From Curvularia clavata (Eukaryota): a DNA stretch of 64,000 bases. Under the pieces are notes generated by a model. That model was given only the letters and a program-made list of their open reading frames with translations, had not been told where the DNA came from and did no database searches. Position 1 is the first letter of the stretch. Every line of letters starts with the position of its first letter. Where the stretch lies: contig CP089275.1 of the NCBI GenBank assembly GCA_023920165.1, forward strand, positions 1,426,001-1,490,000, given 5' to 3'. Positions 279 through 29,617 of the stretch are shown piece by piece. A program made the position numbers and the translations under genes.

Positions 279-311
279 GTGTGGGTGTGGGTGTGGGTGT
301 GGGTGTGGGGG
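279..311 (+). repeat. (GTGGGT)n microsatellite with G-quadruplex potential
   Basis: About five tandem GTGGGT units ending in a G-run, giving at least five GGG tracts separated by TGT. Confidence 0.8.
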
Positions 312-5939: not shown

Positions 5940-5949
5940 AAAGTCGCCG
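5940..5949 (-). promoter_or_regulatory. Cluster motif CGGCGACTTT (RTA1/hydrolase divergent promoter, copy 1)
   Basis: aaagtcgccg on the + strand, the reverse complement of the motif that recurs upstream of all cluster transcription units. Confidence 0.65.
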
Positions 5950-6005
5950 TGAGTGGTCGAAGGGGGGGGTCGGTCCAACATATACACGCCAAGCTGTTGC
6001 ATGTT

Positions 6006-6017
6006 TCGGCGACTTTT
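6006..6017 (+). promoter_or_regulatory. Cluster motif TCGGCGACTTTT (RTA1/hydrolase divergent promoter, copy 2)
   Basis: Exact 12-mer also present at 26658 and 29606. Confidence 0.7.
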
Positions 6018-6750
6018 CGTACTCGCTCAGCGTGGTCTTTGTACTCACACCCCGGGCCCGTTTGGGCAATGTACAGGGATTAGACCCCTGTTACATTCTG
6101 CACATAGCGGGCCTCTTGTGGGTAAGCTGGACGCCTAGAACAGCTGAACGGCGCCTTCTGCAATGGCCCGGACGGGTCCTAACCGCCAGGAGCAGCCAAA
6201 AGAACAAGATGGTACAACAACGGTTACTATGATTGCTAGGAAATCGGCCTAAGTAGAGTAGACTTGCCAAGGCGCTATGCCTGAAATGGGGCGTACGTCT
6301 GGCAGTGCCATAACACCTTTACTCCACGCCGACAACAAACTGAAACGACTCCGAAGAGGGCGCCGATAATGATTTCAGCTGGAGGATATATCATCATGGC
6401 ATCGGGCAGAGTAGATAAGAAGACCAAAGCCAACTCTCACAGCGATAGGCGCATTTCACAGACAGTCATTAATTTGCTCATCTCGCTCACCACATTATCA
6501 ATACCCCCTCTTGGTCTCGCCGGTATACCTGCTTAGGTGCTGAAGTGAAACCACCCACAGCATTCCCACAGCGCGCGGCAATCCATCGTGGTCCTCCCGA
6601 TCGACGATCGCCCCGACACCTAGACGGACGCCTTATTTCGTCGTTCGCGATCGAACACGTGCCAGGAGACGCACCAAGCCATTCACTGCAGTGCTATCAC
6701 GCCGCACCGCCACAAGATTACTCTGTGGGTCTCACCAATTGTTGCCCAGT

Positions 6751-7692
6751 ATGAGATTCCTATGCCTTCACGGCATGGGTACAAACTCGAGCATCTTCGA
6801 GACCCAGATCGCGGGAATGTGTCAGCAGCTGCAGGACCAGGGCCACGAATTTATTTTTGTGGACGGCCTAATTGAATGCGATGCAGCTCCAGGTATGGCT
6901 ATGATTACTTTTGTATTTCGCAATTTTGCTGCTTCAGGGATGCCTCGTGTCCGCAATGAAGTCAGTCATGCGCAAGTGTCACATCATCAAAGCTAACCAA
7001 TGACTGCAGGAATCGGATCCTTGTTCCCCGGGCCGTACCTCTGTTACTATGACCTCCCAACTCCAGAAAAGGTTCAGAGTGCATTTGATTATATCAACGA
7101 GGTGATTGAGGAGGAGGGTCCGTTCGATGGTGTTTTCGGTTTCTCGCAAGGAGCTGCGCTAGCCTCGTCGATGATGTTGGAGCACTATAAGCGCAACCCA
7201 CTTGACGACCTTTTCAAATTCGCAGTGTTTATTGCGGCCTCGCTTCCCTTCAATCTTGACGACACCACAGGAATGAGACACTGGGAATCCGCCGTGCGCA
7301 AGGCGATACAAGGCGCACCGGCCGCTTTCGGAGGCGAATTCGCAGGTGAGCTCATAGTCGATGAGGGCAGCGGTAGCAGCGAGGATGAAGACAGCGAGAC
7401 GCACACTCGTGGATTTCCCCTCAGACCTTGGATGTTGGGCACTAAAACATTGCTTGGGAGGTATCACCCTAGCAGGGACAAGGTCAGAATCCAGGTGCCC
7501 ACACTACATATTATGAGTGATGTGGACCAGTATCTGGCGCAGAGTGAGAACTTGGTTAAACTTTGCAATTCTGAATTGAGTTCAGTCGTAAAGCATGATG
7601 CTGGACATCGAGTTCCGCGGAGCAAGGACTTTGAGGTCAAGGCAACAGCAGGCTTGGATGCAGTAGTGAGATCCTCACTGATGAGGACATGA
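6751..7692 (+). CDS. FSH1/LovG-type serine hydrolase, probable polyketide-releasing esterase
   Basis: MRFLCLHGMGTNS N-terminus, GPFDGVFGFSQGA nucleophile elbow, PTLHI...D and HDAGHRVP (Ser-Asp-His triad). One intron at ~6893-7009. Confidence 0.9.
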
Positions 7693-7923
7693 GGCTGTAT
7701 CACTTCTAATTGAGGATATCTACTACGACGCAAGCGTATATTGGTACATTTAGATGGAATAACATGCATAATAGAGCACACAGTGTACGCCGGCGATCCC
7801 TGGGTAATCGAGAAACATGGGTACATATCGGGACAAACAAAGGAACACCAGTGATTGAATGCTGTTTAAAAAAAAAGTCCGTGACTCCATCCGAATGAAA
7901 GAATCGGGGCCTTATGGGCGGCC

Positions 7924-9255
7924 TCATGCCTTCACGAGAAGAGAGTCAGCCGACCCACGCATCTCCTCCCTCGTCCTCTTGATTTCCACCAGGAGCTCAG
8001 AAACTTCCAGTCCACCAAGAGGTTTCATAGCCCTTTGCATCCCGATGATCGCATCTCGGCCCCCAGAGAGGTCGCTGAGCATCGAGGCCAACCTCGCGAG
8101 GTGGAAATCCATGGTCGTCAGCTGTAAAATCGAAGTTAAATGATTGGCTGTGACGCTCCTGCCTGCGCCCATCGAGCCACCAGACGGATCCATTGGATGA
8201 TGTAAAATATTGGTTGTAGGTCCACCACCTGTACCGGGCCCAGGCGTCTGACCCGCAACCGCGAGGTCCGTGCAATCGGGATTGGGGCTGGCGGCCCATG
8301 AGTGGGTACGGCCGAGCAAGCGATAGATGTCTAGTAGCATAGCCACCCCCATCAACGCCAGGACAAACATTGCGTGGGTATCCTCATGATCCATTGGGTG
8401 TTGAGGTCGTATTGTCTCGTTTTCGGAGGATTTTCCAGATATCACAGCGTGGAGGATATCGCACAGGCTGGACGCCGATTCGAAAACCTCCTTGCCCGGT
8501 CTCACTACGTACTCTTCCGTTCCGTAAATTCCGGGGATACACCAAGGCCTGTTGCACTCCTGTCGCAGAATGAATAGCAGTCTGGATAGTTGTCGATAAA
8601 CATCAAGTGGCAGTCCGCTGCCATCGGTGTGTGGAAGCAAACCCAAGGACTTGTCCGGCACCTTTGAGTGTTCGGAGATGGGAGGGGTGAGAAGAAGTGG
8701 TTCCGGTTTTGGCACGTGGTTGTGATGTTGAAAATAGTTCATGCTGGAATCGTTGCTAGGTGAGTAAGGGAGTGACCTGTATACCAAAGAGTCAGTTTAA
8801 TTGATCCATACTGGGTGGTGATACAAAGCGGCGACGTACGCAGATGTGGAAAAGTTTGCAGCTTGATTCTCCAGGATGAATGTGAAGTCGTGCTGGGACA
8901 TCATGTCAAAGTCATTGTCGGGTAGCTGAAAGGTATCATGCTGTGCCGGCTGTGGCAGCGCACCTAGGTCGCTCTGGGAGCAGCTTCGCGCTGGGGTAAG
9001 TGGTCTCTGTTCCTCTCTCTTTTCTGATACTGATGCTCTCTTCTGTGCAGCAGATCTTGATGAAGTCTTATCTGCTGCTGACCTGTCTTTGGCCCTCCGT
9101 CCTGCCTTCCTCGGCCTTCCCATCTCGTCTCTTGGGCTGAAGATGCAAACCCTCCCTGTGCCCTGGCAGTTGAGACAAGCTCCCGGCGCATTGGTGGTAC
9201 ACTTGATTTTACGGTCGTGACACTCATCACAGGCACTCCGGTGCAGTGATTCCAT
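7924..9255 (-). CDS. Zn(II)2Cys6 transcription factor, probable cluster regulator
   Basis: CDECHDRKIKCTTNAPGACLNCQGTGRVC binuclear cluster followed by basic MGRPRK. A second exon is provided by ORF 7924-8787. Confidence 0.88.
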
Positions 9256-9941
9256 GGCCGGCTGAAGATCGAGACGATGTCTCAGGGAGAACCAAGGGGA
9301 GGTATGGGGTTTTGTCTGAAAGCAATTGATCGGCTACGAGTCGATAAATAATTTGTTTGGCGCGGGTGGTATTTCAATTTGTATAGAGTCGAGAGGTCCT
9401 ACGTCACATCAACAGCCCGATCGATATCGAGGTTTTTGCTGACGCATGTATGTACTTACGCCACAATCCTGATCCGGCGGAGCAAGGCCCCAACTATACC
9501 TTATTCTTCCTTCTGCTAGTTACATAGGATAAGCTGAGCTCAGCCTCAGCACCCAATGTGACTTCCGGTCACAGCGATCTATTAGCGGAGCCACACGTTA
9601 GTTGACATCTGTTCGTGGGGGTAGTTGCGGACATAGAACGTACTAGTCGAGCGGAAATAAGAGTGTGTCCGTGTGTGTAGGTTATATTAATAACTGCCTA
9701 TGGCGTTTTTACACCACAGTGAGGATTACCATGAAAATATATGTTTATTCGGGTGGATGCGAGGCAGCCATGGCGCCGTGTTGGTCCGGACATTGTTGGT
9801 GGCTTCTAGTTACCATTCTAAACAGGATTCGGTAAGAGCTCGGGCAGTCTTGTCAAGTACATTCCGAAGGATTTACAACCGAGAGAAATGGACTTGGATG
9901 GCGCCTACTCCCTCCTACCTTATCACTTCGTAGTGTGGAGG

Positions 9942-10221
9942 AGACCGAGCTAGTACTATGGTGAGACCAGACTAGTACTCTGGTATCAGGCCACTACTAA
10001 GGTATCAGGGGGAGGTTTTATAAGGCCCGGATATACAGCTTTTCCTTAGGATTGGCTGGGATCTCTCATCAATAAAGAATAAAGTTCTGATTAGCTGTTA
10101 AGAGGCGTTCAGATACAGGAAAGACTTAGAGGTGTCTAAAGTAGTACCGAGAAAAGACTTAGCATTGTCTACAGTAATACCGAGACTAATGCCGCGCGTA
10201 CAAGACTTCGGCCTAATACCA
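9942..10221. repeat. Degenerate repeat / possible LTR remnant with two pairs of imperfect tandem repeats
   Basis: gagaccgagctagtactatggt / gagaccagactagtactctggt and aaagacttagaggtgtctaaagtagtaccgaga / aaagacttagcattgtctacagtaataccgaga. TATA-like ttataa and AATAAA lie in between. No clean target-site duplication seen. Confidence 0.4.
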
Positions 10222-11401
10222 TGGTAATTCTATGCCAAGCGTTTTTTGCGAGGAGTCCTGGATTGATATCCTAACACATTCCCTGGCAAACTCGCTTTGC
10301 TATATGCAGCATGTGGTTATGTTGATGTTTCACCACAGGGTTGTTGTTTTAGAGAGTGACGGAATTGCCGATGCCCCCTCTGGCCTAGCTGTCTAGACAA
10401 TCCCCTAAAGTACCGTTGCAACATTGTATCGCCGCCGTGAGAATATCATGATACATTGTCGAGGTGTCAGACTTATTCAAGGCTTCCAAGTGGATTAGTG
10501 GAGTACACGTGCGTAACGGCTAGGAAGTACCTGTTGGGAAAAAGTGGAGTGTAAGATGAATAGATGAGTCTGGCCGGCAGGCCGGGTTAGATGCTGTACT
10601 AGTCCGCTTCGGGACATCGATGGCCCATATGGCTGCTTCCAACAACAGTTCCAGGTTCCTGGACGTTAGGCCACAGCATGACTCACGTAGATTGACTTGC
10701 ATCCCATTTTGGCCCAATAAAAATCCCAGTCTACCATCATCGTATTCGGGGTTGGGAAAAAAATGCTGTTCTTGTGGTAAACATGGTATCCTATGATAAG
10801 GAAGCTCTCGCGAAATATTACGATTGGTCGCAACCCCCTCGCCCCTCCTACAATCCCATCTGCCGACTACCTAACAATTAAGAAAGTTAAAAATTAGTAC
10901 GATGGCTGGAAAATAATGGAGCAATGCATTTCTAGTGAAGACGCTTAGCCATTTGAAAGTAGGCTAATCTCACAGTACGGCGTACTTGCATTTGTTATGA
11001 AAGCGTACTGCTGAACGGCTTCTGGCCCCCACGTGGCCCCCAACCTGGCGTCCTGTTAGCCTAACAGCTACGAAGTACGGAATACTCCACCTTACTGTTG
11101 GTTCCACCCCAAGTGGAGGCTAACACAACTTGCGAGTCCAAGTTTAGTTCAGCTCGATCGCAGGGTTTAGGTTTTCGCATCCCAGGTAGCGTAACATTCG
11201 GCTCTCAACCCTATAATGTCGTACAGTAATCAATCGGAAAACAGGGACGCAGGTACTAAACTCAAAGTTCTTGAAATGATATATATATCAATCAACGCAA
11301 GATCACCGTGTGTTGACGTTTTGTCTCAACAAAAGTTATGAGGACAAGCAGTTGGGGCACTTCTCTGTCACTTGACGTCGCGATCGCGGGTGCGTAAGGA
11401 T

Positions 11402-11413
11402 TCGGCGACATTT
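11402..11413 (+). promoter_or_regulatory. Cluster motif TCGGCGACATTT (TF/MFS intergenic region)
   Basis: Identical 12-mer at 24453, upstream of the PKS. Confidence 0.7.
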
Positions 11414-12033
11414 GGAACACAGCACAATACGAGTTTCATACGTTAGTGACCTCGCGATCGGGTCTCGGCTGGCTCCGGCGATCCGCGGGTAGCACGACGC
11501 GATCTGTAGAGGAGCTGCGAGGCGTGCGGAATGCGCACGTGTCCGAATAAAGACCTGGAGTGGGTACTGTGGCTGGCTGCAGCGCATACGTACTCTGTAT
11601 TACGCAAGGATTGTGCATCTACAATTGTGTTGCGAGCCAATCGTTCACCAAAAGTCACCGAGTCGGATGGTCATGTAGAAAACGAGGAAATGTGCCAGTC
11701 TCGCACTCGGTCACAATAACATGTCCGCGACTCAATTCGCACTCGCTAAGCCACGTATGGTCGACCTTTTGGGGACTTCTACACGTGGAAGGACTCGACG
11801 CTCAGCATGTACGCGCAACCGCTAAAAAATGTTCCCGACAGGAGATGATACCGCAAACGAGCAGTGTCTCGACGTCGACTGTGAGCCCGGACGATTTGTT
11901 TACCGGCTTATATACGAAAGAGATGCCTCCGCGAGCGATCTAGGCTGACCACCCTCGACACTTTGTAATTCTTCCATGAGAAGTGCGCCTATTCGCAAGC
12001 TCTCCCAGGTGTCAGCTATACCTGCTCCCAAAT

Positions 12034-14291
12034 ATGACCAAGCAATCTCTCGAAGAGAGTGAGGTGCACATTGCAAACAGGGAGATGTCCGATTCGGAAA
12101 ACTCGTCGAGCCACGATGGGCTGGACATTAACAAAGAGATGGATGAAGCAATCGTTACTCCGAAGAGCTTCAGTCCAAAAGTCGATGCGACGGTTTTGGC
12201 TAATAGCAGTACCCAACAACTGACTGAGATGACCATGGATGAAAAGAGATTTGCAGCGGACCAACAAGCCCACCTACCACATATCGAAGGAGTTCGACTG
12301 TGGATACTAATTGCCGTGTAAGTCTCGCAGATAACCGCAAGCGACCTGGACTAACTGTGGGATGCGAATAGTCTGGCAACGGGCCTTCTCATGTCGTCGC
12401 TAGAGACGACAATTATAGGGACAGCCCTGGTATCTATTGGCTCTGAACTAGGCGACTACAGTCGGTCAGCGTGGGTGGTGGCTGCATATCTGATAACTTA
12501 CACGGGTAAGATTGCTGTCTTGCATCAGAGAAGCTGACCATTGCCTGTCTGACATGCGCCGGGGTGCCAATATAGGTTTTCTTATCATTTTTGCGCGCTG
12601 TAGTGATATCTTTGGCCGCAGGTCAGCTTTCATGGTTGCACTCGTCATTTTCACTGGCTTCTCGCTCGCATGCGGTCTGGCCCAGACTATGAGTCAGCTG
12701 TAAGTTCTAGAATGCAAGAATTAGCTTGGCGCTGACAGCGTGTCTTTCTAGGATTGTCTTTCGGGCCTTTCAAGGCGTTGGGGGTGGTGGATTGTACAGC
12801 TTAGCCATGGGCATTGCGACTGAGGTTCCGGGACCTGTGAGGTCTCCCATCAATGGCATCTTGTCGTCTACCTTTGCCATATCCAGCGCCATCGGGCCTC
12901 TTCTTGGAGGGGCCATCGCCTCAAGTTCGAGCTGGCGCTGGGTATTCTTGCTGAAGTAAATTGGATCTGGCCATATGCACATGATACCTGCTGATTTCTT
13001 TCACAGTGTTCCGGTTGGAGCTACAATATTTGGTATCGCCTTTTGGTTCTTCCCCAAGAACTCAGTTCCTCTTAACATCACCTTTAGAAGCCTCCGCCGG
13101 CTCGACATTCCTGGTATTGTACTCTCACTAGCGGCCATTATCTGCTTGATCTACTCGCTCCAGCAGGGTGGATTGGTACTGGCTTGGGATAGTGCACCCA
13201 TAATCACAACTCTCACAGTACAGGGAGTATGCTGGATCGCTTTCATCGCATGGGAAGTTTATCTTACGAAAATGGGCAAGCGATCCACTATGCTACCAGT
13301 CTGGCCAGCACGCTTGTTCGCAGGCAGGGTGATCGGAAGCGCGATGCTGTAAGTCCACGTTTCAAAGATTATGAAAGCAATGATGCATCGAGCTGACTTT
13401 GTGAATAATAGGACTTCGTTTTTGAGTGGTTTACCATTCATGACTATCATCGTCTACCTTCCTCAGAGATTCCAACTAGAAAATGGTCTCTCCCCGGTGG
13501 GAGCCGGAGTTCGTATGCTCGCATACCTGCTCATCTCATCCTTCGCCGCCGGCTTAGCTTCCGTCATCTATGTGATCAAGAATGTGTTGTTCCCTTTCAT
13601 TGTTGTAGCGACCGGCCTACAGGTGATTGGGCTTGGGCTGATGTCTTCACTGTCATCCTCTTCGGGGGTTCAGCCCCAGCAATACGGCTATCAGGTCATT
13701 CTTGGTTTGGGATTTGGTATCAGCTTGAGCTCGCTGCCCTTGATTGCCAGGCTGCAAGTGGGACCAGAGGACCATGGTGAGTAGTTCGTCTACTTGTTCA
13801 CGAATTTCGTGGACATCATAATGCCCGTGTTTTATTTATCTGCTCAAGAATTACGCTGACAAAAGACAGCCGTGAACATGGGCGCAATTACTCAGATTCG
13901 CATTCTTGGTGGAGTGATTGGCGTGGGGATTGGAGAAGTTATCCTTTCATCCCAGGTGTGGTCATCGCTTGGAGATATTTTGAGTGCCGACCAAGTCAAA
14001 CTTCTGTTGAAGAGCGTGTCGAACATTAACCGCTTCACTCCTGAGCAACAAGCTGCTATCAGGAGAAGTTATGGAGAGGCTTTTAACCTCCAGTTCAGAA
14101 TTATGACCTACATCACTCTGGTATGCTTCGTTGTCTGCCTGGGCTGTTGGGTGAGGAATCCGATTGAGGTGAGGGATATGGAGAAGATTGAGACACAGCG
14201 AAGGGAGGACAAGGTTGCTGAAATCCTGAGAAACAAACAGCAGGATGAGGAGAAACAAGAGACTCCAAGTAATGATGAGGTAAAAGCATAG
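12034..14291 (+). CDS. MFS drug:H+ antiporter (DHA2, 14-TM type)
   Basis: SSLETTIIGTAL, FARCSDIFGRR (motif A), FRAFQGVGGGG, GPLLGGAI...SWRWVF and YLPQRFQ. About 6 introns. Confidence 0.9.
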
Positions 14292-14517
14292 AGTTAGACA
14301 TAGACGATAGATACTGAAGGCTGTTCACGTCAACCTTAGACCGATCCCTTCCTGGCTTCGGAACAAGCAATTGAACCATCAGAATGAAGTGGCAACCCAG
14401 TATCTCAAATTTGTGTCCTTTTCGACCGGAAACCATGTGTGCGCGTTACCGTGAGTTACGGAGATCTTAACAACCACTCAAATCTAGATTGATACTTATC
14501 GATACCTAGTGGCCAAC

Positions 14518-15575: not shown

Positions 15576-18500
15576 CTATGCAGCCTCCGCGAGAACTGCA
15601 GCAGGAACACACTTCGACTTCTCCACCATCGTCCTAACCAACTGACTGATGGGAACATTGCTGAGCAGCTGGAACACGGAGATGTCGGCTTGGATCTCGG
15701 TGAAGATCCAAGAGCGAATCTCAACTGCGAGGAGAGAATCGACACCGTACCGATTGATCGGTCTCGTCGACTCGATATCCTCTACATCTACCATGAGCGA
15801 CTTAGCCAGCTTCCGTAGTAGAGCCATGGAGACGATATCGCAGGCAGCTTCCATGCTCGTCGCCTGTGCGAGCAGGATCTGAAGCTGCATCGTATCTTCC
15901 TCGGTCTCCATGGTCACCTGATGCGTGTCCACGTCCTTAATGTGCGCGAACTTCGCGTCTTCAAACCACCACGGGATCTTGAACCCAGCGAGGTTTGCCA
16001 TTCCTCCCGTTCCGAGACCGGTGATGAGTTGAGCTGGGATCTTTTGTCCGGGTGCACTCTGTCCTTCGATGACGGACTGGACCAGTGCGTGGACTTCCTT
16101 CTCACGGAGACCGGCGAATGACCACTTCTTGGTGTTTTCGGCAACTTCTTTGTTGGATGTTTCGGCGACGTAGCCAACGTCGAGAATCATTCCCAAGTCG
16201 ATGACGCCGGCATTGAGGCCCAATCCGCGACGGTAATTGGCGAGTGCATCTTGGAAAGAGTTACCGGCAGCGTAGTTACCTTGGCCTCGAGATCCGGCAA
16301 TACCAGCACTCGATGAAAGCATTACGTAAAAGTCCATATCCTTGGGAAGGTACTCGTGTAAGTTCCACGAACCCTGAACCTTGGGCAATACAGCGCCGAG
16401 GTATTGTTCATGCGTCATGTTCTCATAGATGGAATCCTGATATCGTCAGTCACTTGCTTCAGTGGGAACGGAGTTTGACATACTTTAAGAACCATGGCTC
16501 CCTGAATGCAACCCTTGATTGGAGGGAAGTTCTTTTCGCATTCCGCGACGACCTTCTTCACCTCCTCAGGATCGCTGACATCGCAAGCAAAAGCACGGAC
16601 CCTGGCGCCTTCCTTTGCCAGAGCATCAAGCACAGCGCGAGCCTCGGGCTTCTTGTCTCCGGATCGGGAGAGGAACACGATGTTCTTGGCGCCTTGACGA
16701 ATCATCCACTGTGCGAGAGATCGACCCAGACCGCCTAGACCACCGCTCAAGACATAAGTGACGTCTGGCTGGAACTTCATCCATTTGTACTTGGGGGGCA
16801 CAACCTAGCAAAGTTAGACGGATGCAACATTCGATGATGGATGGTTACTTACTGGTACCAAGTCCTCGTCGTGTGCCTCGAAGACGATCTTTCCAACGTG
16901 CTTACCGATCTGCATGGTTCGGAAGCCTTCCTCAATCTTCGAGAATGGCATAAAGGTCATGGGGTCCACCGGTGCCACGATTCCCTCTGAAAGCAGTCCC
17001 ATGACTTCCTGGAAGACCTTGGCGCAGATCGGAGTTGCACGCTGGAGGAGTGCGACTAGATTGACGGAGTGGAAGGAGATGTTTCTCAGGAAAGGAGACA
17101 TATCAAGCCCAGTATTGCTCTCTACAAGTAATCGTTAGCATCAAAGATCTGAGATAAGCAAACCAGCATAACCGCTTACCAATGTCTTTCTGGCCCATCT
17201 CAACGAAACGACCGAACCAAGAAGTGCAGTGCCAAGTCTTGCGAAGGAGGTCACCAGCAAGAGAGTTCAGTACCACATCAACACCCTTCTTGTTAGTCAG
17301 GCGCATAATACCGGAGACAAAGCTATCATCTCGAGAGTTGAAGATGTGGTCTTCTGGAATGCCGTAGTTCTCCATGATGAGCTTCTTCTTTGCATCCGAA
17401 GAGACCGTAGCGAAGATCTCGGCTCCAATATGCTTGGAAAGCATGATTGCGGCTTGACCAACTCCACCAGCGGCGCTGTGAATCAAAATAGATTCTCCCT
17501 TCTTGAGGTTGGCAGTGTTGGAGATTGCGAACCAGGCCGTGCTGAAGATCAAAGGCATAGAAGCAGCAGTACCAAAGCTAAACGCCTCTGGAATAGTAAC
17601 ACACATCGACTCGGGACTGCGAGTGTAGTTGCAGAAGGCTCCAACAGTCCAGGTCATGACCCTGTCACCAATCTTGAACTTCGTAACATCGGAGCCGACG
17701 CGACTGACGACACCACTGCAATCCAAGCCGAGTGCATGCTCCTCGAGTTGACCCATGGCGATCATGATATCCTTGAAATTGAGACCAACGGCCTTAACCT
17801 CAATCTCAACAGTGTCAGGGGCCAAGGGAGTCTCGTATTGCGGGTCGTCGCCAAATTGAAGAGAGTCTAGTCGACCCGCAGTCTCAACTTGGAGCGCCAA
17901 TGGTCGCCCAGGCTGCTTGAAGGGTGCGAGTTCTGGTTTGGGCTGAACGTGGAAGCTGGAGAGAAGGTCGTTCATGCCCTTCTCGAGCAAGATTCTCTGG
18001 ATCAGAATCTTTCCGTCGCGAATGGCATACTCCCAATCAGGCCTGACCTCTGAGCCAGCCTGGAGACCGGAATGGTAAACCTCGCAGAACTTTTCGACGC
18101 TGTTAGAGCTATCCAAGGGGCTGTTGAAGTCCATGTCGACTGTCAACAGGGCGACGGATGGATTCTCGGCACGGATGCAGCGCGCCATACCCGTCATGAG
18201 ATTGTTCTTTGGCGACTCGCTGTTGATGGTTGCGCCACGCGTAATCCATGTGGAATTAGCGGATTTCAGGATGAGGTTCTTGAGACACTCAAAATCAACC
18301 TTGTTCACTGTCGGTAGAAGGGCGTTGTCGGAGTCGCAGTCCAACGCAAAAATGCACGAAGTCTTCGAAAGTTCGAGCGCGGCTGTGTCTTTGAGGAGGC
18401 AGAGGTCAACAACCGTCCCTTCCTTCTCCTTCAAAGCGGCGACTGATTGGTCAATGAAGCTTCGGAGCTCCTGACTGGGAGCCTCCGGTTGCACGAACAA

Positions 18501-21500
18501 GATGTGGTTCTGAACCGGGATCGTTGGAACCTCGGCCACTGCTGTCGATACCATGACGGAGTAGAAGTGATCTTTCGGGTCCTGGATGTCTTGCATAGCG
18601 AGGTCGACTCCGCTAAATGCGTTCCTCTTGAGAACCTCATCCCATGTGGATTCGGTCATTGTTGGGCCCCATTCACGACCGTCTTTCTCACCGGCCCACC
18701 AGCCGTCGAAAGAACCAACGATCATGTGAATGCGAAGAAGAGGATTGGTGATCTCGCTGAGAACCAATTTGCCATTACTAGGTTATTTAGCTACGTCTGT
18801 TTCATGATCAAGGGTGGGTTGAACTTACGGCTTGAGAAGTTTCTTCACATACGACAGGGTCTGGTCCATGGACGGTGTAGCGTGGAGAACGTTTGCAGCA
18901 ACGATTAGGTCATACTCACCCTCCTTGAAATTTTGGGTTACTGGGTCTCGCTCGATGTCCAGGGCAGCGAATGTCATCCATGGAAGCCAAGACTTGAACT
19001 TCTCGTGCGCCTTGTCAAAGAAACCAGTGGAGATATCGGTGAAGGTGTAGCTGGACATGCGGGGAGAAGTACCATTCTGGCCACCGATCGCTTCGAGTAC
19101 TGGTAGTGTTGCACCACCCGTACCAGCACCAATCTCCAAGATCTTCATAGTTGGATTCTTGTGAGCCAGCAGATCCACGTAGGAAGCCAACTGAGCGTAG
19201 GTCTGAGGACATCCAACACCGTATTGGTAGAAGTCATTCAGGTGGTTGTTCTTCATCAACACTTCGATTGCCAGAATCTCTCCCCTCATGATGGCAACGA
19301 GGTTCTCGCCGTGTTCGCACATGACTGCACCGTCGGTAGACCCTGCGGCGACGCGCTTGAGTAGTTCGGCCTCGTATTCTGGGGTCGAGTTCAACCAGTC
19401 AATCTCTTGGCTCTGATGAGGTACCGTGCGATCGGTAACACTCTTCAGGGTGCGTTCCATGAGTTGGTAGAACTTTTGGAAGTGCGGCTGGAAAGTTTTC
19501 ACCTCATCCTTGGAGCAGGTCTCCAGGACTCTTCGCATGTAGATGAAAGCAGCGTGCTCCAAATCACTTATGATGGCCGGATCAACTGATGGAAGCGCGT
19601 TTAGTGACTCCGCGCAGTGGCTGATGAGAGAATTCGAAGTCATCTTGCTGATGTCCTCGTCCCAGTGGAAGGAGGCGATGAGCTTTCTCATATTGCTAAT
19701 CAAAATGTTAGCCTTATCTTCAGTAATCGAGAGGAGTCATGTACTTACGCAGCTTGAGCAAAGCCCAGTTCTCCGTGCCTGAGAGCTGTCGATTTGATGC
19801 CCTGGAAGGACACCACTGGGGCAGTCCATGTGTCGTCAAAGACAATGAACGAACCTTGAGCATGCTCAAAGCCCTCATTCTCAATCGCGGCAACGCCGTG
19901 TAGGAGTTCTCCGGCCGAGGAAGGAATTGTCTTCGAGATGTAGAAGTTCTCAATCGACGTGGGAATAAGGCCAACCCTCAATTCCTCTTCTGCTGGAGTC
20001 GCTCCGGCCAGACCCATCTGGATGATGCAGTCAAGGGTACTTGGGTGGATCACATGAGGGAATTCAAAGTTCTTGGGCATCATCGCTTTTGTGTCGGGGA
20101 TCTTCAGTACGCAACGCGACTTGAAATGTCCTCGCTTCACGCCAACAAGACTCTTGAAGGGGCCCGAGAAGTTGAGACCGATTGTCGACAACGATTCGTA
20201 ATGCGCCTCTGGGTCGACAGTCTTATGGCAGCCAGCTTCAATGGCGTCAAAGCGTTGACGGAAATCCTCAGTGGCGAGCTTCTCCTCGTCCGCGAAGATT
20301 GGGTTCTTCTCCGACACGTATCGAACCCTCACAAGACCCGTACAGTTGAGGATCCACTCCGCAGAATCAAGCTGTCGGGACATGAGGCGGAACTCATCCC
20401 AGTCGGAATCGAGGGATTGCGAACCACTTCTCCACGGGCGCAAGCTCAACATGGTCTCAGTACCGGTATCATCAGCAGGAATTACAATCGCCTTGCCAAT
20501 GATGACATCCCGTAGCTCGTAGCCCTGTACCTCTCGATCCTTTGAAGCGCGCTGGGCAGCAGCTTCGATCGCGGCGACAAGCATACCGGCGGCTGGATAT
20601 AGGATGGTTCCCTGGACCTTGTGACACTCGACCCAAGGCATCTCGTTGAGCTTCATAATGTTGCGGAAAAGAGGCTCGATCGAGTTGCCTTGCGGGATAG
20701 CTGCACCCAGCAAATCGGTTCTTGGGTGATCGCGGAATCTGTAGTTCTTGGAGACTTGACTCTCACCCCAGTACTTGTTCTTGCGGTTCCACGCGAAGGG
20801 GGGGATATCAACAAGGAATCCATCCTTTCCGAGTGTTGCCTCATCTCGGTTTGCTTCGGCGATCTTGACTGGGTATCCCAATTGGAACAAACTTCCGACA
20901 ACACCGAGAGATGTGACTACGGCGTCTGTACCACGGGATAGAACGGAAAAGGTTGGAACTTCCGCAATCTTTCCACCCTCTGCCTTGATGATCTGCTTCA
21001 GCGGACCCTGAAGAGCCGAATGGGGTCCAAGTTCAAGCAAAACATCGACAAATGGCTTAGTAGTGCGTCTCTTTCCAGGGTTGTGGCGGCACAAACTCTG
21101 GACAGCCGACACAAAGTCCACCTCATTGACCATGTTCTTGACCCAGTATGCAGCTCCAAGGTCCTCATTCTCGATCATAGCACCGGTGACTGAAGAGAAC
21201 ATCTTGACCTTGCCAGATGTGGGCAGTGTCTCGATGTCTTTGAGCGACTTCAGATACAGGTCTGCAATGACCTCCATGTGGGCCGAGTGATAGGCGGTCT
21301 CCACCTTCAGCATTCGAGCAAAGTGACCGTCATTGTTCAACTTGATCTCGAGAGCCTTGATGGCAACAAAGTCTCCGGAGACGGTGGTCGAAGTAAGCGA
21401 GTTCTTGCAAGCGACCATCGCGTAACCTTCAGTAAGCGCGTCGATGTATGGCTGCACAGCATTTGCCCCAAGACCAGTGGCAAGCATAGCACCCCGTAGC

Positions 21501-23774
21501 TGGGGAGCGATGTATCTCAAGCTCTCTGAAAGGTGGCCACGGCGGTATGAGATGGTCCACGCGCTCTCGCGGGTGATGGCACCTTTGGCGTAAGCCGCTG
21601 CGATCTCGCCAGACGAGTGTCCAGCGACTGCTTCTGGAGTGATGCCCCAGGAGGCCAAGAGATCAATCAGAGCGACCTGCAATGCGGTACAGATTGGCTG
21701 ACTGAATTGAGGCGAGTTGATCTTGGACACGATTTCGTCTGCCTTAAACTCCTCAACAAGCGACCAAGGGCACCCGATCGACTTGAGGTGTGCATCGGCA
21801 TCTCGAAGGCTTTGCTCAAAGATTGGGTAGGCTCGAAGCTCTCGACCCATAGCATACCATTGGGCGCCTTGACCAGTGAAGATGAAACCGAGCTTCGGTG
21901 CTTTAGTGGTGGATCGCTTGGCTTTGACAGGAGGTGACTCCAGTGCCTCGACTAGCTCCTTTCCAGAAGCTGCCACTGCCCAGTTCTTCCATGGGAAAAC
22001 ACTGCGATGAGACGCCAGAGTGCGCGCAAGTTGGTCGAGGAGTTTGGCCTCTGCCTTGGCGCTCTTGGTGCCGTCAAGCTTCTTGCTGAGGTACTCGCGG
22101 TACATCGTAGCAGTTCTGTCAACACCGCTCTGCTCGTTCGAAGACCAGACAAAGAGCTTTGGCTGCGTAGGGTAACGACTGTCGTGGAAATAGTCTGGTG
22201 CACTGTCGCCATTGAGATTGAGGATGGAAGCCTGGAGATCGTTGATTGGAGTGAGACCAATACCGGAGTCTACACTCGAAGCTGGCGACGAAACCTCGCT
22301 GCTAGCGACCGTATTGTGGTTTGCTGTCAGTCCTCTGGCCTTGAGGAAATGATAAGCGTCATCAATGATGCAGTGAGCGTTGGTGCCTCCGTATCCGAAA
22401 GAGTTAATTGAAATACGGCGGGGCCCAGCTGACGGCCAAGGGATGAATTTGTCAACAACTTTCAGGTTCCAGTCATCCATCGGGATGCGGCTGTTTGGCT
22501 TGTCATACCAGAGGTTGGGTGCAAGTTCAGCCTTCTCAAGCGAGAAGACAGCCTTGGTAACTTGCGCCAAACCGGACGCACCCTCAAGATGGCCGATATT
22601 GGTCTTGATAGAACCAATCAAGAGGGGATCTCCCTTTGGTCGGCTCAGACCCAATGTTTTGGATAGAGCGGCTGTTTCTTGAGGGTCACCAGCCTGTGTG
22701 CCGGTTCCGTGAGCTTCGACGTACTGGGTCTCGTTGAGAGGAAGACCAGCGTCCTGGTAGCACTTGCGGATGAGCGCTTCCTGAGACTCGGCGGAAGGAA
22801 CAGTGATTCCAGGAGTGTTTCCATCCTGGTTCACGCCGGTGTTTCGGATGACACCACGGATGACATCGTGGTCTCGAATAGCGGCGTCGAGAGGCTTCAA
22901 CACAACGAACGAAGCACCCTCACCTCGAGCATATCCATTTGCCTTTTCGTCAAAGCTGTGGCACACGGAGTCAGGGCTCAGAAAGCCCAAAGATGTCATG
23001 GCAGTCATGACACCGCATGCAAGCATGCTGTTCACACCTCCAACGATCGACTGGCATGGTATTAGCATTTGTCAATCGCAGCTATTGTGCGTTCAACTCA
23101 CCATCTTGGATTCCTTAGTCCTGAGACTCTGGCAGCCAAGGTGCAGCGCAACCAAGGCCGAAGAGCAGGCCGTGTCAAGAGAGATGGATGGACCTTTCAG
23201 ATCGTAGAACCAAGAGACTCGGTTGGACAAAATGGCAGTACCAGTACCAACTCCAAAGTAAAGTGGGAGGTTCTCCTGGTCAGCAGCCAGCATCTCGCTG
23301 TAGTCCTTTGAGAAGCTGCCCACGTAGACCGACGTATCCGACCCAATGAGATCTTCCATTCGGAGACCAGCTAAGGCGTGTTAGCAAAGGAACTTGAAGT
23401 TCGGGGCTTTTCCACTTACCATTCTCCATTGCCTCGTATGAACATTCCAGTGCCATACGCTGCTGTGGGTCCATGGCAAGGGCCTCGTTTGGAGTGATCG
23501 AGAAGAAGGGTGCATCAAAAGCATCCACCTCAGTGTGGCTCATGTAATGTCCTCCTCGGAGATTGATTGAGCCTGACCTCTCATTGTATGGGTGATAGAA
23601 GGCGTCGATATTGAAACGATCCGCCGGAATCTCAGTCATCGCACTTCTGGCGCTTGAAATCAAGTCCCAGAGCTTCTCTGGGTTTGCTGCATCGCCTGGG
23701 TAGCGCCCTGCCATGCCAATGATGGCAATGGGCATGACGGGCTCATCTTCTGTGGTGTATTGTTGTGCAGACAT
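15576..23774 (-). CDS. Highly reducing iterative type I polyketide synthase KS-AT-DH-cMT-ER-KR-ACP (8 exons)
   Basis: KS: DTACSS, EAHGTGT, GHLEGASG. AT: GHSSG, AYHS. DH: HKVQGTILYP, HPSTLD. cMT: LEIGAGTGG. ER: IHSAAGGVGQ. KR: GGLGGLG, YAAGN. ACP: GVDSL. No C-terminal TE, R or NRPS domain. Seven canonical introns join the ORF segments. Confidence 0.97.
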
Positions 23775-24452
23775 GTTGAATTGCCGGGGATGTTTGAGGG
23801 GTATCACGAACGATTAAAATTGACAAGTGTTGATTCAGACATGTAAGTGAAGGATACGAGTAGGCTTTATGGAGAGCTCGTTTCCTGGAAGAAAGGCCGC
23901 CACGACTTCCACGGCATCGTGAGGCACGCAATACTAGCTACATCGATACTACTGTGGTTTCCCTAACCTACAATGTCTCGCTCATTTTGGCAATTGTCTA
24001 TGCCCGAAGTCCAGCCAGTACGATAAGGAATATCCCGTTCAATTGCGTATAGGTACAAGCCCTCCGTACTGTCGGAAATACTGCGGTCACGGTGACTTTT
24101 CCACATCTCGCTATTGTAAGCCTAACGAGATTCCTTATGTTCTCAGCCGGGGGCCAATTTGAAACATTCCAACAATAGTAAGCATTTCGGTCGAGGCTTA
24201 CACAAATTCTAACCGAGACTCTGGTCCTAGGCTCTTGGCCACTGTTGTGGCTTGCTATCCACATATCCCGAGCGTTCCCATGCATACGCTCCAGTGACCA
24301 AAGTTTCGGAACTTTGCTGACGAAGGAGCTGCAGAAGGATTCACATAGTTACATTTTACCAGCTTCCTGTTTGGCAGAAGATCCTACGGGTACTTTAAGT
24401 CACCAAAGTGTGCAGGGACAGGGGGTCTACAACGGGGTGGGAGTAAGCGAGC

Positions 24453-24464
24453 TCGGCGACATTT
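24453..24464 (+). promoter_or_regulatory. Cluster motif TCGGCGACATTT upstream of the PKS
   Basis: About 680 bp upstream of the PKS ATG and identical to the copy at 11402. Confidence 0.7.
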
Positions 24465-24899
24465 GACCTCCCACCCATCCGGCACCGCTGATGCCAACCG
24501 GCCGGATCCCAGATGTCAGACTCAAAGCAGACACGGACCTGACGATCGGCGGAAGCTTGGAAACCCGCGATTTCATTGTTAATTCCCATTCTTTGGTGCG
24601 TTCCTGGATAGTATCATCATGCGTTCTCACACGTGGCTTGATATTCTTAGCCAAACTATGTACCGCAGCGCCGGGACCAATGTCGGCCTTCACCTTGTCG
24701 TCGGAAAGGTTTTCTTGCCAGCAGTTTGATTTTCTGCTATGACAGTAACATAGGTGCAGTTTGAGCAAAAGTTGATGTTGCGATAGTAAAGACCATGGAC
24801 AGCCTCAAATGCCCATTCAGAACATTTACAGCAATGAATTAAAATGAACGTATATGTTGAGACTGATAAATTGCGCTTTTTCATTCTCTCTTCCACCGT

Positions 24900-26294
24900 T
24901 CAAAATTTGCTAGTAATAAATTGAGTCGCAACAGTCCATCCAAAGACCAAAATCGCAGCCAGCCACTTGATGCCCCCAAACTGAGCATAGGTGCCGACAA
25001 CTCGGCTTAAAAGCCGTTTCTCATTGCCATAATGTAATACTTTCTTCTCCCACTGTTCAATCGTCAGTTCTCCCAGTATCACTTTCTCTAGTAGCAGTGC
25101 ATTCATTGCCGCTTGGTTAGCGCTAAGAGCGATGTGCGGCCGGAACTGGCTCAAAGCATCGCCCACGAAGAGCAGTTCGCCGCCAAAGAAGGATGCCTTG
25201 GGCATCTGAGCTTCGCTGACTGTTGAAATAAATGGCCGGTTCGTTTTCTCGATGAGTTCAACAAATGGCGCAGGGAGCACTGATCGGGCATACGCCTTTT
25301 GCCTCTCCCATGCAGCAGGGGCCATGGCCCCCGGCGGTATGGTGTAACGGTGCCTGTGACCGTCCTTGTCTGTCATTATGTCTTCAAACTCTTGAGTGCC
25401 TTCGGAGACGTTGTAGTACCAAACGAAGTTCAAAAGACGCTCACCCGGCTTCAGACTTCCGTTGCTACCAGGGATTATATATCTGATCGAGTCAGTTGGT
25501 ACGCTGATGCGATCTCACCTAGAGATTGAGGGTAAAATACTTACACCAGGATGTAATTGCGCTTCATTTTGAAGACGGTGAATCGGTCTCCGCATGTCTT
25601 CCTGGTTTCCTCAGAGACCTCACTCTCGACCACGCTTCCACGCCACGCAACGTAACCTTCATATGGCCTCTTAACCTTGCAAACGATGTCGCGCATTCTG
25701 GACGCCGATCCGTCGGCCGCTATCACGAGATCCGGAGTTAATGTGTCCTTGGTCCCATCCGTTACGTTTTCCACAACAATTGAAATCGACTTCTCATCGC
25801 CGACAATATTGGTGACGCGCTTGCCCGCATCGTAAATTGCTTGCCCATCCATATCTGAATGGGATGGTGGCTTTGGGCAGTAGTCACTTTTGAAGCCATC
25901 GAAATTTGCCCGGAGCCGGTAGTATAAAGTCGACCAGCCGGTCATGACCATTGGAAAGTCGATGAATCGCTGGACAGACGAGTCGGATTTGATGAATTGT
26001 ATGCCAGGACACGAGATTGACCATGAGTCCTCGATCAAATCAAATCTTTTAAAGTACTCCGCGGCTTGCGGTCCAGCTCGGATTCCGGCTGCTTCACTAC
26101 TTCGCACGGAAGAAGGGTCCTGCTCAAGGATCCTGACATTGTGGCCCATTCGTTTGAGCATGATTCCATTCATCAAACCTGCGAGAGAACCGCCGATCTG
26201 GATGGTATTAAGACCTTGAAATTGCCTTATCCTAATGCGCTTGGAGACTTACTATGACAACGTCGAGCATCTTCTTCTCTCCGAGATTCGCCAT
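24900..26294 (-). CDS. FAD-dependent monooxygenase (2,6-dihydroxypyridine hydroxylase-like group A flavoprotein)
   Basis: VVI|IGGSLAGL Rossmann motif, DLVIAADGSAS (DG motif), YEGYVAWRG and FVGDA...RPH (GD motif). Two introns. Confidence 0.88.
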
Positions 26295-26657
26295 CGTGCT
26301 TGATTTTGGTGGGGTATGTAAGAAGACTATCGATCAAGCGATCATGGATGGGAACTCAGACGAATGCCGAACTCTTGGGTTAATGAGTGTAAGATTCGTG
26401 ATGACAGATTACTGTCAGAAGGGTTGGCCTTAATCACGGGTGTATGCGAAAGAGGCGTAGTTCAGCCTTGTCTATGAAGAAAACCGTAAAATCATTCGAG
26501 CAACAGGCCACTGGAATCTCAAAAGACGACATTCATTGTATTTCCCAGTAGAGTATTCTACCCGAACTTTTCCAGTGCAGTATCACAATACCTGGAGGCG
26601 GATCGGTAGGATAAGACCTTTCGGGGTTGGGGGCCAGTGGCTTATCGATTGCAGCAC

Positions 26658-26669
26658 TCGGCGACTTTT
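26658..26669 (+). promoter_or_regulatory. Cluster motif TCGGCGACTTTT upstream of the monooxygenase
   Basis: About 365 bp upstream of the monooxygenase ATG. Confidence 0.7.
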
Positions 26670-26782
26670 TGGGGGTGGAACACAGGAAAACCAATCTGTT
26701 CTGCATTCTGCTGACCCGATATTTTGTGTTGATTTCATCACTAATTACATGTACGTTGATGATTTTCCTCATTTGCTCCGAA

Positions 26783-27655
26783 TTACCGCAATCCACCCCC
26801 GGCAATCACGCTCTGCCCAGTGACATAGCCCGTCTTTGTAAACATGGTAACCACATTTGCGACCTCATCAGGGTCTCCTAGACGTCCCAAGGGAATCGTT
26901 CTCACGGTATCCGGGACGAATGTAGCACTAGGGATCATCCCTGTATTCCCAATCATTGCTGGCGCGACATCATTGACCGAAATGTTGTACTGGGCCAATC
27001 TCGAAGCGAGATTCTTCATCATGCCTGTGAGACCTCCTTTCGAAGCCGCATAATCTAGCGCATGCGATTAGCAGTGATTCATGGACGTTGAAATATTGTG
27101 TAAACTTACGACAGCCGTTGATTCCACCTCCCGAGGCTGCGATGGAGGAGACGAAAATGATTCGTCCCCAGTTATTCGCCTTCATACCATCCACCACCCC
27201 TTTCACGAGCAGGAACGGTGCCCTCAGATTCACGTTAAATGCCTGCTCAAATTGATCCAATTCTATGTCCTCGATGTTGACGATTCGCTTCCCATACCCC
27301 GCATTCGCGACGAGTATTTCTACTGGTTGGGGATGCTGCTGTTTGACCTCTTTTAAGAGTTTCTCGATTTCAGTGGAAGATGCAAGATCCACCTTGTGCA
27401 TTGAGATGTGGATGTCGCAAGGTGCTGATTTTTTGAGTTCGAGTACCAACTCCTGAAGCTTCTGGAGATTCGTCGAGTATGTAAGGGCGAGATTCACGCC
27501 TTCAGCTGCTAGCTGACGCGCGCATGCCCCGCCAATACTGTTAGTAATTTTGTCAGCCTGAAAATAATATTGAAGGTTAAGCAGATGATTTCATACCCGC
27601 CAGACGCTCCTGTAATTAATGCTAGTCGCCCTTTCACTCGCGTCTGCTCCGCCAT
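26783..27655 (-). CDS. Short-chain dehydrogenase/reductase (FabG-like)
   Basis: LITGASGG|IG, ANAG, GRIIFVSS, YAASKGG and PLGRLGDPDEVA...YVTGQ. Two introns. Confidence 0.9.
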
Positions 27656-27967
27656 ATCCACAGGTTTTGCGCCGATATTCAAGAGCGAGTAGAAGAGAAA
27701 ATTAAGCAGCCAGCCAAGGCTACTGAGTCCGTTCGCCGTCTTTTTGCTGATGGCTGTTGTCCAGCCAGGTGAGGAGTTCTGATTGTTCTGGTACATCGGT
27801 CAAGAGTGAGAGTACAACAAAGCTTCGACCGGGAATCAATATCAAGACATTCTTTCCCACTTCCCTACTTGAAAGATATTCATAGCATTCAAAGGAAGCC
27901 TTAGTTAGATTCTCCGGTGTTACTTCCGCGTGCTTACTTGGTTCTTCGGGTATTTGGGTTGGGTGTA

Positions 27968-27978
27968 TAAGTCGCCGA
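27968..27978 (-). promoter_or_regulatory. Cluster motif variant TCGGCGACTTA in the divergent SDR/SDR promoter
   Basis: taagtcgccga on the + strand. Confidence 0.55.
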
Positions 27979-28153
27979 GCGAGCGGCGCCCAGGGAGCGC
28001 CATGCAGTTGTCAGTCTGTATACGCCACAATACACAAATATCATCAACAGTTATTATTCAAACTTGCCCAATACAATTTTTCATGTTACCGATTTGAACT
28101 AATTCAAAAACAACTTCAAGGTTACCAGCCAGCTTTGCTCTGAATTGGAGGCA

Positions 28154-29236
28154 ATGGTCGACCAGAGGAAAAGTGTCCTAATCACGGGCTGCAGCCCTGG
28201 TGGAATTGGCCACTCTCTTGCTCGCGAGTTTCACCGTCAAGGCGAGTGCTTTATTCTATAATTCAAAACTCAGTTCAAATGTATGCGCATTCTGACGCGC
28301 AGCAGGCCTCCGTGTTTTTGCGACCGCTCGCAAAGCCGAAACACTCAAAGACCTCGAGGCTCTCGGAATTGAACCCGTCTCTCTCGAGGTTCACAAACCC
28401 GAAAGCATTCGTGAACTAAGAGCGGAAATTGAGAGACGCACTGGAGGCAAACTCGACTATCTTGTCAACAATGCCGGTCGAAATTACACGGTACCCGCGC
28501 TTGAAGTCGACTTCGACGAGGTAAGGGACGTTTTTGACACAAATGTCATTGCAGTGATGAGGATGTGTGTGGAATTTTCACCACTCCTGATCAAAGCGAA
28601 GGGAACAATCGTGCAGATTGGAAGTTTGGCGGCATTGATGTGAGTTCATTCTGGCTAGGCTATAGTCTTGTGCTAATCAGAAACTTGTAGTCCATATCCA
28701 TTCGGAAGTGAGCACCATATTCCTTGAGAATTGAGTTCAAAAAGTCATACTGACGCATTTGGAAGGTACCTATAACGCGGCAAAAGCAGCATTACACGCT
28801 TACAGCAGTACACTACGCCTCGAACTCTCTCCTTTTGACGTCAATGTCATCACAGTCTACACTGGCAGGGTCAAGTCACGACTTGCCAGAGTAGAGCGCA
28901 CACTACCGGATGGCTCATTGTACATGCCAATAAGTGATGCGTACGAATCGAGAGTGAAGCATGGAATAGATGACTCGATGCCAGCAGATGACTATTCCAG
29001 ATCTGTAGTCGCACAAATCTTGAAGCCAGCCGCGAAGGGTTGGATCTGGGAAGGAAGATCGAGCTGGTCCGTGTGGTTTATGAGCAGCTTCTTGTCGCAA
29101 CAGAGACTGGTGAGTTGAACTGTCATGTGAAGTATTTGCAGACACTAATTTTTGCTAGCAAAACATATTTGCGGGTATCTATAATTTCAAGGCCCTCCGT
29201 GGTAGTATTCACGAGGAGAAATTGGTGGACATTTAG
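28154..29236 (+). CDS. Short-chain dehydrogenase/reductase, Ayr1 (1-acyl-DHAP reductase)-like
   Basis: MVDQRKSVLITGCSPGGIGHSLAREF, GLRVFATAR, LDYLVNNAG and TYNAAKAALH...LRLELSPF. Four introns, the first GC-AG, plus a 17-nt micro-exon. Mostly missed by the ORF track. Confidence 0.88.
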
Positions 29237-29605
29237 GTGATATTTCTTTGCGGTGGGGCCAATTCAACAACAAGTTGTATCTAGACTTAGAAAGTATATC
29301 ACATTTACTTTCATGATGCGAATACAATTCGAATTTTTTTAACAAAACTACGAATTCTTTGCTTTTGCACTCATGTCTGGCCATATGAACTGTGACTTTA
29401 GAAGTTCATGATGCCAGCCTATTTTCCTCGTAATCTGCAAGGCTACTTCACAACCCGATGGGAAGGAACCGCATCCAAAAGCAGAGTTGCACTAGTATGC
29501 GAGTTTCATTGGTTATTTCAGTCTCACGCCCAAGCCTCCGGATAAGGATGAGATAGCGAAAATGCGGATTGATGTACCGCTCGCATTACTAGGCATTTTG
29601 ATTTC

Positions 29606-29617
29606 TCGGCGACTTTT
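29606..29617 (+). promoter_or_regulatory. Cluster motif TCGGCGACTTTT upstream of the P450
   Basis: About 270 bp upstream of the P450 ATG and followed by a further CGGCGG. Confidence 0.7.

Follow-up and report, generated by a model that had tools for sequence, protein, structure and literature searches.

What brings the genes of a fungal polyketide cluster under common control, and how far does that control reach along the chromosome? The question is raised by a 64,000-nucleotide stretch of the Curvularia clavata genome (assembly GCA_023920165.1, contig CP089275.1, positions 1,426,001 to 1,490,000 of the forward strand; hereafter the window, numbered from its first letter), which carries a nine-gene highly reducing polyketide synthase (HR-PKS) cluster. 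The genes encode an RTA1-like membrane protein, an FSH1 hydrolase, a Zn2Cys6 transcription factor (TF), a transporter of the major facilitator superfamily (MFS), the HR-PKS, a FAD-dependent monooxygenase (FMO), two short-chain dehydrogenases/reductases (SDR1 and SDR2) and a cytochrome P450. An original prediction held that a single motif, CGGCGACWT(T), precedes every transcription unit of this cluster and defines its borders. The analysis presented here suggests that the motif, in the wider form YWCGGYGACWTW(T), is most likely an upstream activating site of the nine-gene cluster that is read by the cluster's own Zn2Cys6 TF (9255-7924).

The motif in the window and in the genome

The 10-mer CGGCGACWTT is present in six exact copies in the window, as had been claimed, at 5940 (minus strand), 6007, 11403, 24454, 26659 and 29607; 0.20 copies are expected, and six were reached in none of 100 shuffles. 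The position originally given for the minus-strand copy was right, and the plus-strand numbers fell one base early, on the preceding T. Across the 32.36 Mb genome the 10-mer occurs 169 times, which corresponds to 0.12 expected copies per 23.7 kb and a Poisson P of ~4e-9. A further copy at 27968 (minus strand), said to match nine of the ten positions, is also in place. The predicted motif is real and too narrowly drawn, its full form being YWCGGYGACWTW(T). The window contains 10 copies of the 12-mer WCGGYGACWTWT, each of them within 5939-32300 (26.4 kb), where 0.11 are expected in the whole window. The bare core CGGYGACWT picks out the identical 10 sites, so that every core in the window has the flanks: W and WT are found on 10 of 10 cores, as is a pyrimidine one base further 5′. 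The earlier inventory of seven copies had missed those at 11650 (minus strand) and 24089 (plus strand), and a site near 32290, which had been passed over as a mere variant, is a full match to the wider consensus (at 32289). The ten copies are:

5939..5951, minus strand: motif copy 1, cACGGCGACTTTT, 338 bp upstream of RTA1
6005..6017, plus strand: motif copy 2, tTCGGCGACTTTT, 405 bp from RTA1 and 733 bp from FSH1
11401..11413, plus strand: motif copy 3, tTCGGCGACATTT, upstream of MFS, 620 bp from MFS and 2146 bp from the TF gene
11650..11662, minus strand: motif copy 4, cTCGGTGACTTTT, 372 bp upstream of MFS; newly listed
24088..24100, plus strand: motif copy 5, cACGGTGACTTTT, 314 bp upstream of the PKS; newly listed
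24452..24464, plus strand: motif copy 6, cTCGGCGACATTT, 678 bp upstream of the PKS
26657..26669, plus strand: motif copy 7, cTCGGCGACTTTT, 363 bp upstream of FMO, 3′ of the SDR1 stop
27967..27979, minus strand: motif copy 8, cTCGGCGACTTAT, divergent SDR1/SDR2 promoter, 311 and 175 bp from the two genes
29605..29617, plus strand: motif copy 9, cTCGGCGACTTTT, 261 bp upstream of the P450
32288..32300, plus strand: motif copy 10, cTCGGTGACATAT, 432 bp upstream of BXI1, past the last biosynthetic gene

All ten copies lie 5′ of a start codon, in either orientation, and the gene models given below bear out the claim that they are non-coding. For eight of the nine cluster genes a copy stands 175-733 bp away from the ATG, and one copy may serve two divergent genes. 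For these eight the statement that the motif precedes every transcription unit holds; it fails for the TF gene, whose nearest copy is 2146 bp off, beside the MFS start, and by its position belongs to MFS (in the orthologous locus described below the distance is 1235 bp). Strong autoregulation of the TF gene is unlikely. By eye, a short inverted repeat, GTGAC-N5-GTCAC, is seen at 9559-9573, ~300 bp upstream of the TF start; it has the GTGAC letters of the motif, which may be chance.

In order to guard against choosing a pattern post hoc, all words in the cluster's upstream regions were counted. The sole 8-mer found in 6 of 6 regions was GTCGCCGA, and no 8-mer was common to all six in any of 200 shuffled sets. 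At the scale of the whole genome, the 12-mer WCGGYGACWTWT occurs 54 times (64 for its reversed control) and YWCGGYGACWTW 107 times, with 97 copies outside the locus (3.0 per Mb) against 152 for the reversed control. Among 100 of the 107 copies, the next densest stretch holds 3 in 25 kb. Eleven stretches around other motif pairs or triplets had many of their copies inside long open reading frames, with nothing cluster-like and no common pathway seen. The motif is restricted to the cluster locus; far from being equally frequent in other promoters, it is uncommon elsewhere and falls below its reversed control.

The orthologous cluster and the probable reader of the motif

Metagenome contigs were scanned with an alignment of TF relatives, which gave 12 loci (L001-L012) from 279 candidates. 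L001-L006 are mutually 95-99% alike and therefore count as one lineage. L001, seen over 21 kb, is an orthologous cluster from a lichen-type fungus with its genes in a different order. Identities to the window are 63-83% for the PKS, 35% for the TF (N-terminal part), 54-56% for FMO and 49-70% for SDR2. L001 also has RTA1, the beginning of an MFS-like gene and another Zn2Cys6 gene, different from the TF. The L001 PKS is 84% identical to a Lecanora helva protein, and the window PKS and lichen proteins form a single 13-row clade in a quick tree (Shimodaira-Hasegawa-like approximate likelihood ratio test, SH-aLRT, 100).

At the DNA level the window and L001 align in coding parts only, and the promoters are unalignable. 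The motif is nonetheless conserved in this one independent lineage. With the patterns fixed beforehand on the window, the core CGGYGACWT was found 6 times in 4194 bp of L001 promoter and in each of the 4 regions (0.116 expected; not reached in any of 1000 shuffles), the 10-mer CGGCGACWTT 3 times (0.015 expected) and the 12-mer twice (0.009 expected). The upstream pyrimidine is present on 6 of 6 promoter sites, and YWCGGYGACWTW, a form set after L001 was known, fits all six; one extra core, in coding DNA, is without flanks. When the window and L001 sites are pooled (n = 16), the information extends over ~13 columns, nearly all of it on the 3′ side, with GACWTW after the CGG and YW before it. 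The flanks of the 16 sites show no likeness beyond 13-14 columns, and an origin of the motif in a repeat or transposon was rejected. That the motif stands ahead of cluster genes in both of these distant fungi makes it very probably the site of the cluster's own regulator.

The in-cluster Zn2Cys6 TF is the only regulator common to the window and L001, as far as seen, and is therefore the likely binder; it would bind the motif and activate the genes together. The TF is without a close paralog in the genome (next match E 7e-7). An alignment of 13 TF relatives shows the zinc cluster and the linker that follows it, SPRxEMGRP, to be (nearly) invariant, with little else kept; identity outside these two elements is ~30%. 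TF relatives and PKS or P450 relatives are found on equal-sized contigs in several assemblies (93,955; 61,094; 61,814; 299,915; 106,302 bp) or near each other by locus tag, which suggests that the TF is linked with the PKS and P450 in other fungi.

Beyond the orthologous lineage, L008 (at 5402) and L012 (at 7529) each have one full motif copy, 1.2 and 2.5 kb upstream of a distant TF relative, and L009 (39-262) has two near copies before a P450; L007 and L010 have none. Together, the five non-orthologous loci hold 2 full copies against 0.14 expected at the rate of the window's genome (P ~0.009, a rough value, as the matches were known before the pattern was fixed). L011 was dropped from this count as a duplicate of L010, with the same matches and coordinates. 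The copies in L008, L009 and L012 stand in unrelated gene settings.

Several points weigh against the proposal that the cluster's own TF reads the motif. The orthologous evidence comes from a single independent lineage, L001-L006, and 21 kb of it. Across L001-L005 one of 72 motif columns varies (an altered copy, one of two at MFS, in L003); compared with a promoter variation of 8.2% with gaps counted (P 0.015) or 3.7% with gaps out (P 0.24), this column-conservation test is not significant once gaps are removed. Three of the five non-orthologous loci are without a full copy. The second Zn2Cys6 gene of L001 (L001:16192-17829; Fungal_trans_2) itself has a motif copy 241 bp upstream; it is possible that this gene forms a second regulatory tier that is absent from the window, where no counterpart or remnant was found at E 0.5, and its only relatives in the window's genome are ~30% identical and lie on other contigs. 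The fold model of the window TF is poor (mean predicted local distance difference test score, pLDDT, 57.6; 54-67 in the zinc cluster). Finally, AflR has no coiled coil and yet binds as two monomers on two half-sites (PMC12501005), which limits how far the lack of a coiled coil can argue for a monomer.

Two other explanations of the motif were weighed. A chance pattern, chosen after the fact, might be suspected because the sites were already known when the consensus was widened, and the final 11/12-mer was fixed after L001 was known; this reading is contradicted by the unbiased word count and by the preset patterns on L001, the genome-wide counts also speak against it, and we regard its probability as close to negligible. 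A real site recognised by an unlinked factor that the two fungal classes have both kept, either a broad regulator or a non-zinc-cluster reader of the GAC core, would agree with the lack of a near motif copy at the TF gene in both loci, and some clusters are known not to be run by their own TF (PMC4824125). A broad regulator should leave many sites, and the motif count outside the locus, 97 against 152 for the reversed control, argues against one. An invariant CGG is in keeping with a zinc cluster protein, and where the TF-PKS pair was seen the motif accompanies it. An unlinked reader is therefore considered very unlikely, and the in-cluster TF is retained as the preferred candidate.

Gene models, cluster borders and BXI1

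The genes of the cluster, and the first gene outside the biosynthetic set, are:

4599..5600, minus strand: RTA1-like membrane protein gene, 315 amino acids (aa), one intron; PF04479
6751..7692, plus strand: FSH1 serine hydrolase gene, 274 aa, one intron; PF03959
7924..9255, minus strand: Zn2Cys6 TF gene, 422 aa, intron 8777-8839; PF00172; matches P0001 (Curvularia clavata hypothetical protein)
12034..14291, plus strand: MFS transporter gene, exon borders approximate; weak PF07690 match below the cut-off
15576..23774, minus strand: highly reducing PKS gene, KS-AT-DH-MT-ER-KR-ACP by Pfam domains
24900..26294, minus strand: FAD-dependent monooxygenase (FMO) gene, 425 aa, two introns; PF01494, PF22607; RNA contigs
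26783..27655, minus strand: SDR1 gene, 252 aa, two introns; PF00106
28154..29236, plus strand: SDR2 gene, 286 aa, four introns, the first GC-AG; PF00106
29879..31563, plus strand: cytochrome P450 gene, 539 aa, one intron; PF00067
32733..33624, plus strand: BXI1 (Bax inhibitor-1 family) gene, intron 32969-33029; PF01027; first gene outside the biosynthetic set

To the right of the cluster, Pfam matches and exon models identify BXI1, a ceramide synthase and a tyrosine phosphatase. RNA and strain contigs from 4 of 23 listed runs were compared over the stretch 23600-33400. Spliced contigs in two public runs bear out the introns of FMO, SDR1, SDR2, P450 and BXI1; these five genes are transcribed, and the 5′ end of the PKS is also covered. 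The first intron of SDR2 (28242-28305) has a GC donor, and the 64-base skip seen in two RNA runs restores the reading frame. One run, X11, spans 23600-33400 without a break and shows 243 differences and 24 gaps relative to the window, and the metagenome run X3 has two ambiguous joints near copies 8 and 9.

The closest named relatives of the P450 lie beside PKS relatives in Pyrenula ochraceoflavens, Lecanora helva and Penicillium angulare, as judged from locus tags and contig sizes; on this sequence evidence, the P450 truly belongs to the cluster. Annotated orthologous clusters are those of Pyrenula ochraceoflavens (Q9227_005091-005099), Lecanora helva (ACLMJK_001956-001960) and Penicillium angulare (N7478_012080-012081), with further relatives in Aureobasidium, Varicellaria and Alectoria. 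The nearest relatives of the PKS (63-70% identical) come from lichen-forming fungi and metagenomes, not from other Pleosporales, and most of the near named P450 relatives have the same sources, a patchy distribution. At 38340-40409 (minus strand) there is a 689-codon open frame with apparent membrane stretches and without a Pfam match.

The left border of the motif's range is clean, as had been predicted: positions 1-5938 are free of the motif, and the 10 kb that precede the window hold no full copy. The right border does not follow the prediction, since BXI1 has a full copy 432 bp upstream; the motif runs one gene too far, and this border is not sharply defined. Further to the right, the promoters of the flanking genes hold no further copy, that of the ceramide synthase included. 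The BXI1 copy fits the consensus at every position, and each of its degenerate choices is also used within the cluster. With a scoring matrix trained on the 9 in-cluster copies only, it scores 16.9 bits, compared with 19.6-23.0 for the in-cluster copies and 12.5 for the next best site in the window. The chance of such a copy at the genomic rate is 0.0035 for that promoter and 0.012 for all flanking intergenic DNA.

The BXI1 copy may mark either a captured neighbour or a remnant. BXI1 could be a real member of the regulon, recruited for self-protection, in which case the regulon would be one gene wider; this is compatible with a cluster-specific site read by the in-cluster TF. The full consensus copy at a typical distance and its low chance expectation favour such recruitment, as does the recurrence of its ATA tail in two L001 sites. 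The evidence is one site only, no BXI1 is present within the 21 kb of L001, and BXI1 and the adjacent ceramide synthase belong to ordinary housekeeping families. On balance, regulon membership is rather unlikely. The listings of the literature search held no paper on BXI1 as a cluster resistance gene, and co-regulation, if real, would represent an unreported kind of self-protection via a housekeeping neighbour.

Some further observations concern this region. The presence of RTA1 in the cluster, and of BXI1 and a LAG1-type ceramide synthase immediately beyond it (32733-36539), recalls sphingolipid-related self-protection. The P450-BXI1 intergenic segment 31815-32507, which includes copy 10, is covered by a low-depth X4 contig and by X18, with no gene recognised, and other strains have an 18-base insertion after 32216. 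Contig depths were 12-62 for the cluster genes and 789 for BXI1 in X4, and 73-424 and 171, respectively, in X18, the two runs with spliced contigs. Taken at face value these depths would hint that BXI1 moves separately from the cluster, but depth cannot rank genes and was left unused.

Mode of binding and comparison with known systems

A single CGG is present in 16 of 16 sites, and the sites are asymmetric, as in monomer-type Zn2Cys6 sites (Pho7, AlcR, TerR). A second CGG or CCG at a common offset was sought in the alignments, and no offset was shared by at least 3 of the 16 sites; two CGG-type half-sites at fixed spacing, as in the Gal4, AflR or TerR repeat types, are not what the motif contains. 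In the fold model of the TF no helix is predicted in residues 43-120 (pLDDT there <50), and the C-terminal part is modelled as helical, with low confidence. A lone CGG without a partner half-site, together with a model that shows no helix beyond the zinc cluster, fits monomeric binding of the kind described for Pho7, and by this analogy the TF somewhat more probably than otherwise binds as a monomer in the Pho7 manner. In such a complex (T/A)CGG would be gripped by the zinc cluster from the major groove, while the minor groove across GACWTW would be followed by the conserved SPRxEMGRP(R/K)K linker. The linker's GRP resembles an AT-hook core, which is a lead only.

The nearest clusters to the TF in the Atlas carry CcsR_C (PF27599) or AflR (PF08493), with a score of 0.96. 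A Pfam search of the TF returned Zn_clus only, with no CcsR_C or AflR match, and assignment to the CcsR_C type is taken as a lead. A fold search with the TF model gave no match at E < 0.001, and a search of solved structures gave generic zinc clusters only, with Pho7 not among the 10 matches.

The TF might instead bind as two subunits, pairing with itself through a C-terminal helical bundle or with another protein, and a degenerate half-site would then take the second subunit. The core TCG-G-CGA is itself near palindromic, like the AflR site TCG-N5-CGA, and CGG-CGA is found in 11 of 16 sites; the remaining 5 (CGG-TGA) break the palindrome. A predicted helical C-terminal part could serve for pairing, and AflR and TerR are monomers in solution that are loaded in two copies per site (PMC12501005, PMC4360782). 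At window position 29606 and L001 position 20372 a second TCGGCG or TCGGCGA does follow 11-12 bp on. Against two subunits, the information in the pooled sites is on one side only, and zinc clusters on overlapping or abutting triplets would be expected to clash. Binding as two subunits is accordingly judged unlikely, and the monomer remains the favoured mode. A more far-reaching proposal is that a CcsR/AflR-like subfamily with the SPRxEMGRP linker binds as a monomer to a 12-13 bp asymmetric site, with an AT-hook-like GRP in the minor groove, that this code has been kept across classes and at unrelated loci, so that the word could be used to find and delimit regulons, and that BXI1 was captured for self-protection; taken as a whole, this is decidedly improbable.

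The motif and the TF form a candidate TF-site pair for an uncharacterised polyketide cluster common to one pleosporalean fungus and lichen-forming fungi, and the motif fixes which genes belong to the pathway. The pair would be a candidate addition to the few zinc cluster regulators that read a single half-site, and a one-sided site of 12-13 bp with few genomic copies would be a tidy part for heterologous expression. The literature search, as judged from its listings, found no paper on the motif or the cluster and none on a CcsR binding site. The available parts of PMC10609478 and PMC9335490 do not mention the motif, and the TopC/ApdR motif was rejected as unrelated to it (PMC10609478). Cluster-specific promoter motifs are a known kind of element, and the YWCGGYGACWTW site seems to be undescribed.

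In gene content the cluster resembles the phomenoic-acid-clade acr cluster, which has an HR-PKS with a C-methyltransferase, an RTA1-like protein, an MFS transporter, a P450 and a TF, and in which self-resistance has been shown for the RTA1-like AcrD (PMC11791885). The acr pathway needs a trans-acting enoyl reductase and a truncated non-ribosomal peptide synthetase (PMC11791885), neither of which is among the genes of 4599-31563, and the window cluster has the FSH1 hydrolase, FMO and two SDRs. Membership of the phomenoic-acid clade was rejected on gene content.

The closest parallel for the site is Pho7 of Schizosaccharomyces pombe, which binds as a monomer to TCGGACATTCAA (the tgp1 site), with flanking peptides that contact the minor groove (PMC6265462). 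Both sites are asymmetric: each has just one CGG, preferably preceded by T, and its tail is AT-rich (TCGGACATTCAA compared with TCGGCGACATTT here). The sequence after the CGG differs, being an invariant YGAC here, and Pho7 serves a phosphate regulon, not a biosynthetic cluster; the monomer is shown for Pho7 and proposed here by analogy. TerR of the Aspergillus terreus terrein cluster is likewise a cluster-specific Zn2Cys6 protein without a coiled coil, is mainly a monomer on a T-preceded CGG, and has its sites in the promoters of the needed genes (PMC4360782). TerR recognises a direct repeat, TCGGHHWYHCGG, with a loose spacer, whereas the site described here lacks another CGG and has an 8-bp core that hardly varies. 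The TF shares with AflR/CcsR-type regulators an N-terminal zinc cluster, a long disordered stretch and a C-terminal helical part, and differs in that AflR places two monomers on inverted half-sites whereas the present site is one-sided (PMC12501005).

Overall, such a motif is an expected feature of fungal clusters, with its one-sidedness, its persistence across classes and the stray BXI1 copy slightly beyond routine. The CASSIS/MDM method is built on the premise that a promoter motif is dense within a cluster and sparse elsewhere, and the motif islands it describes are of the same kind as the one found here, which is unusually clean, is conserved across classes and extends by one copy past the border (PMC4824125).

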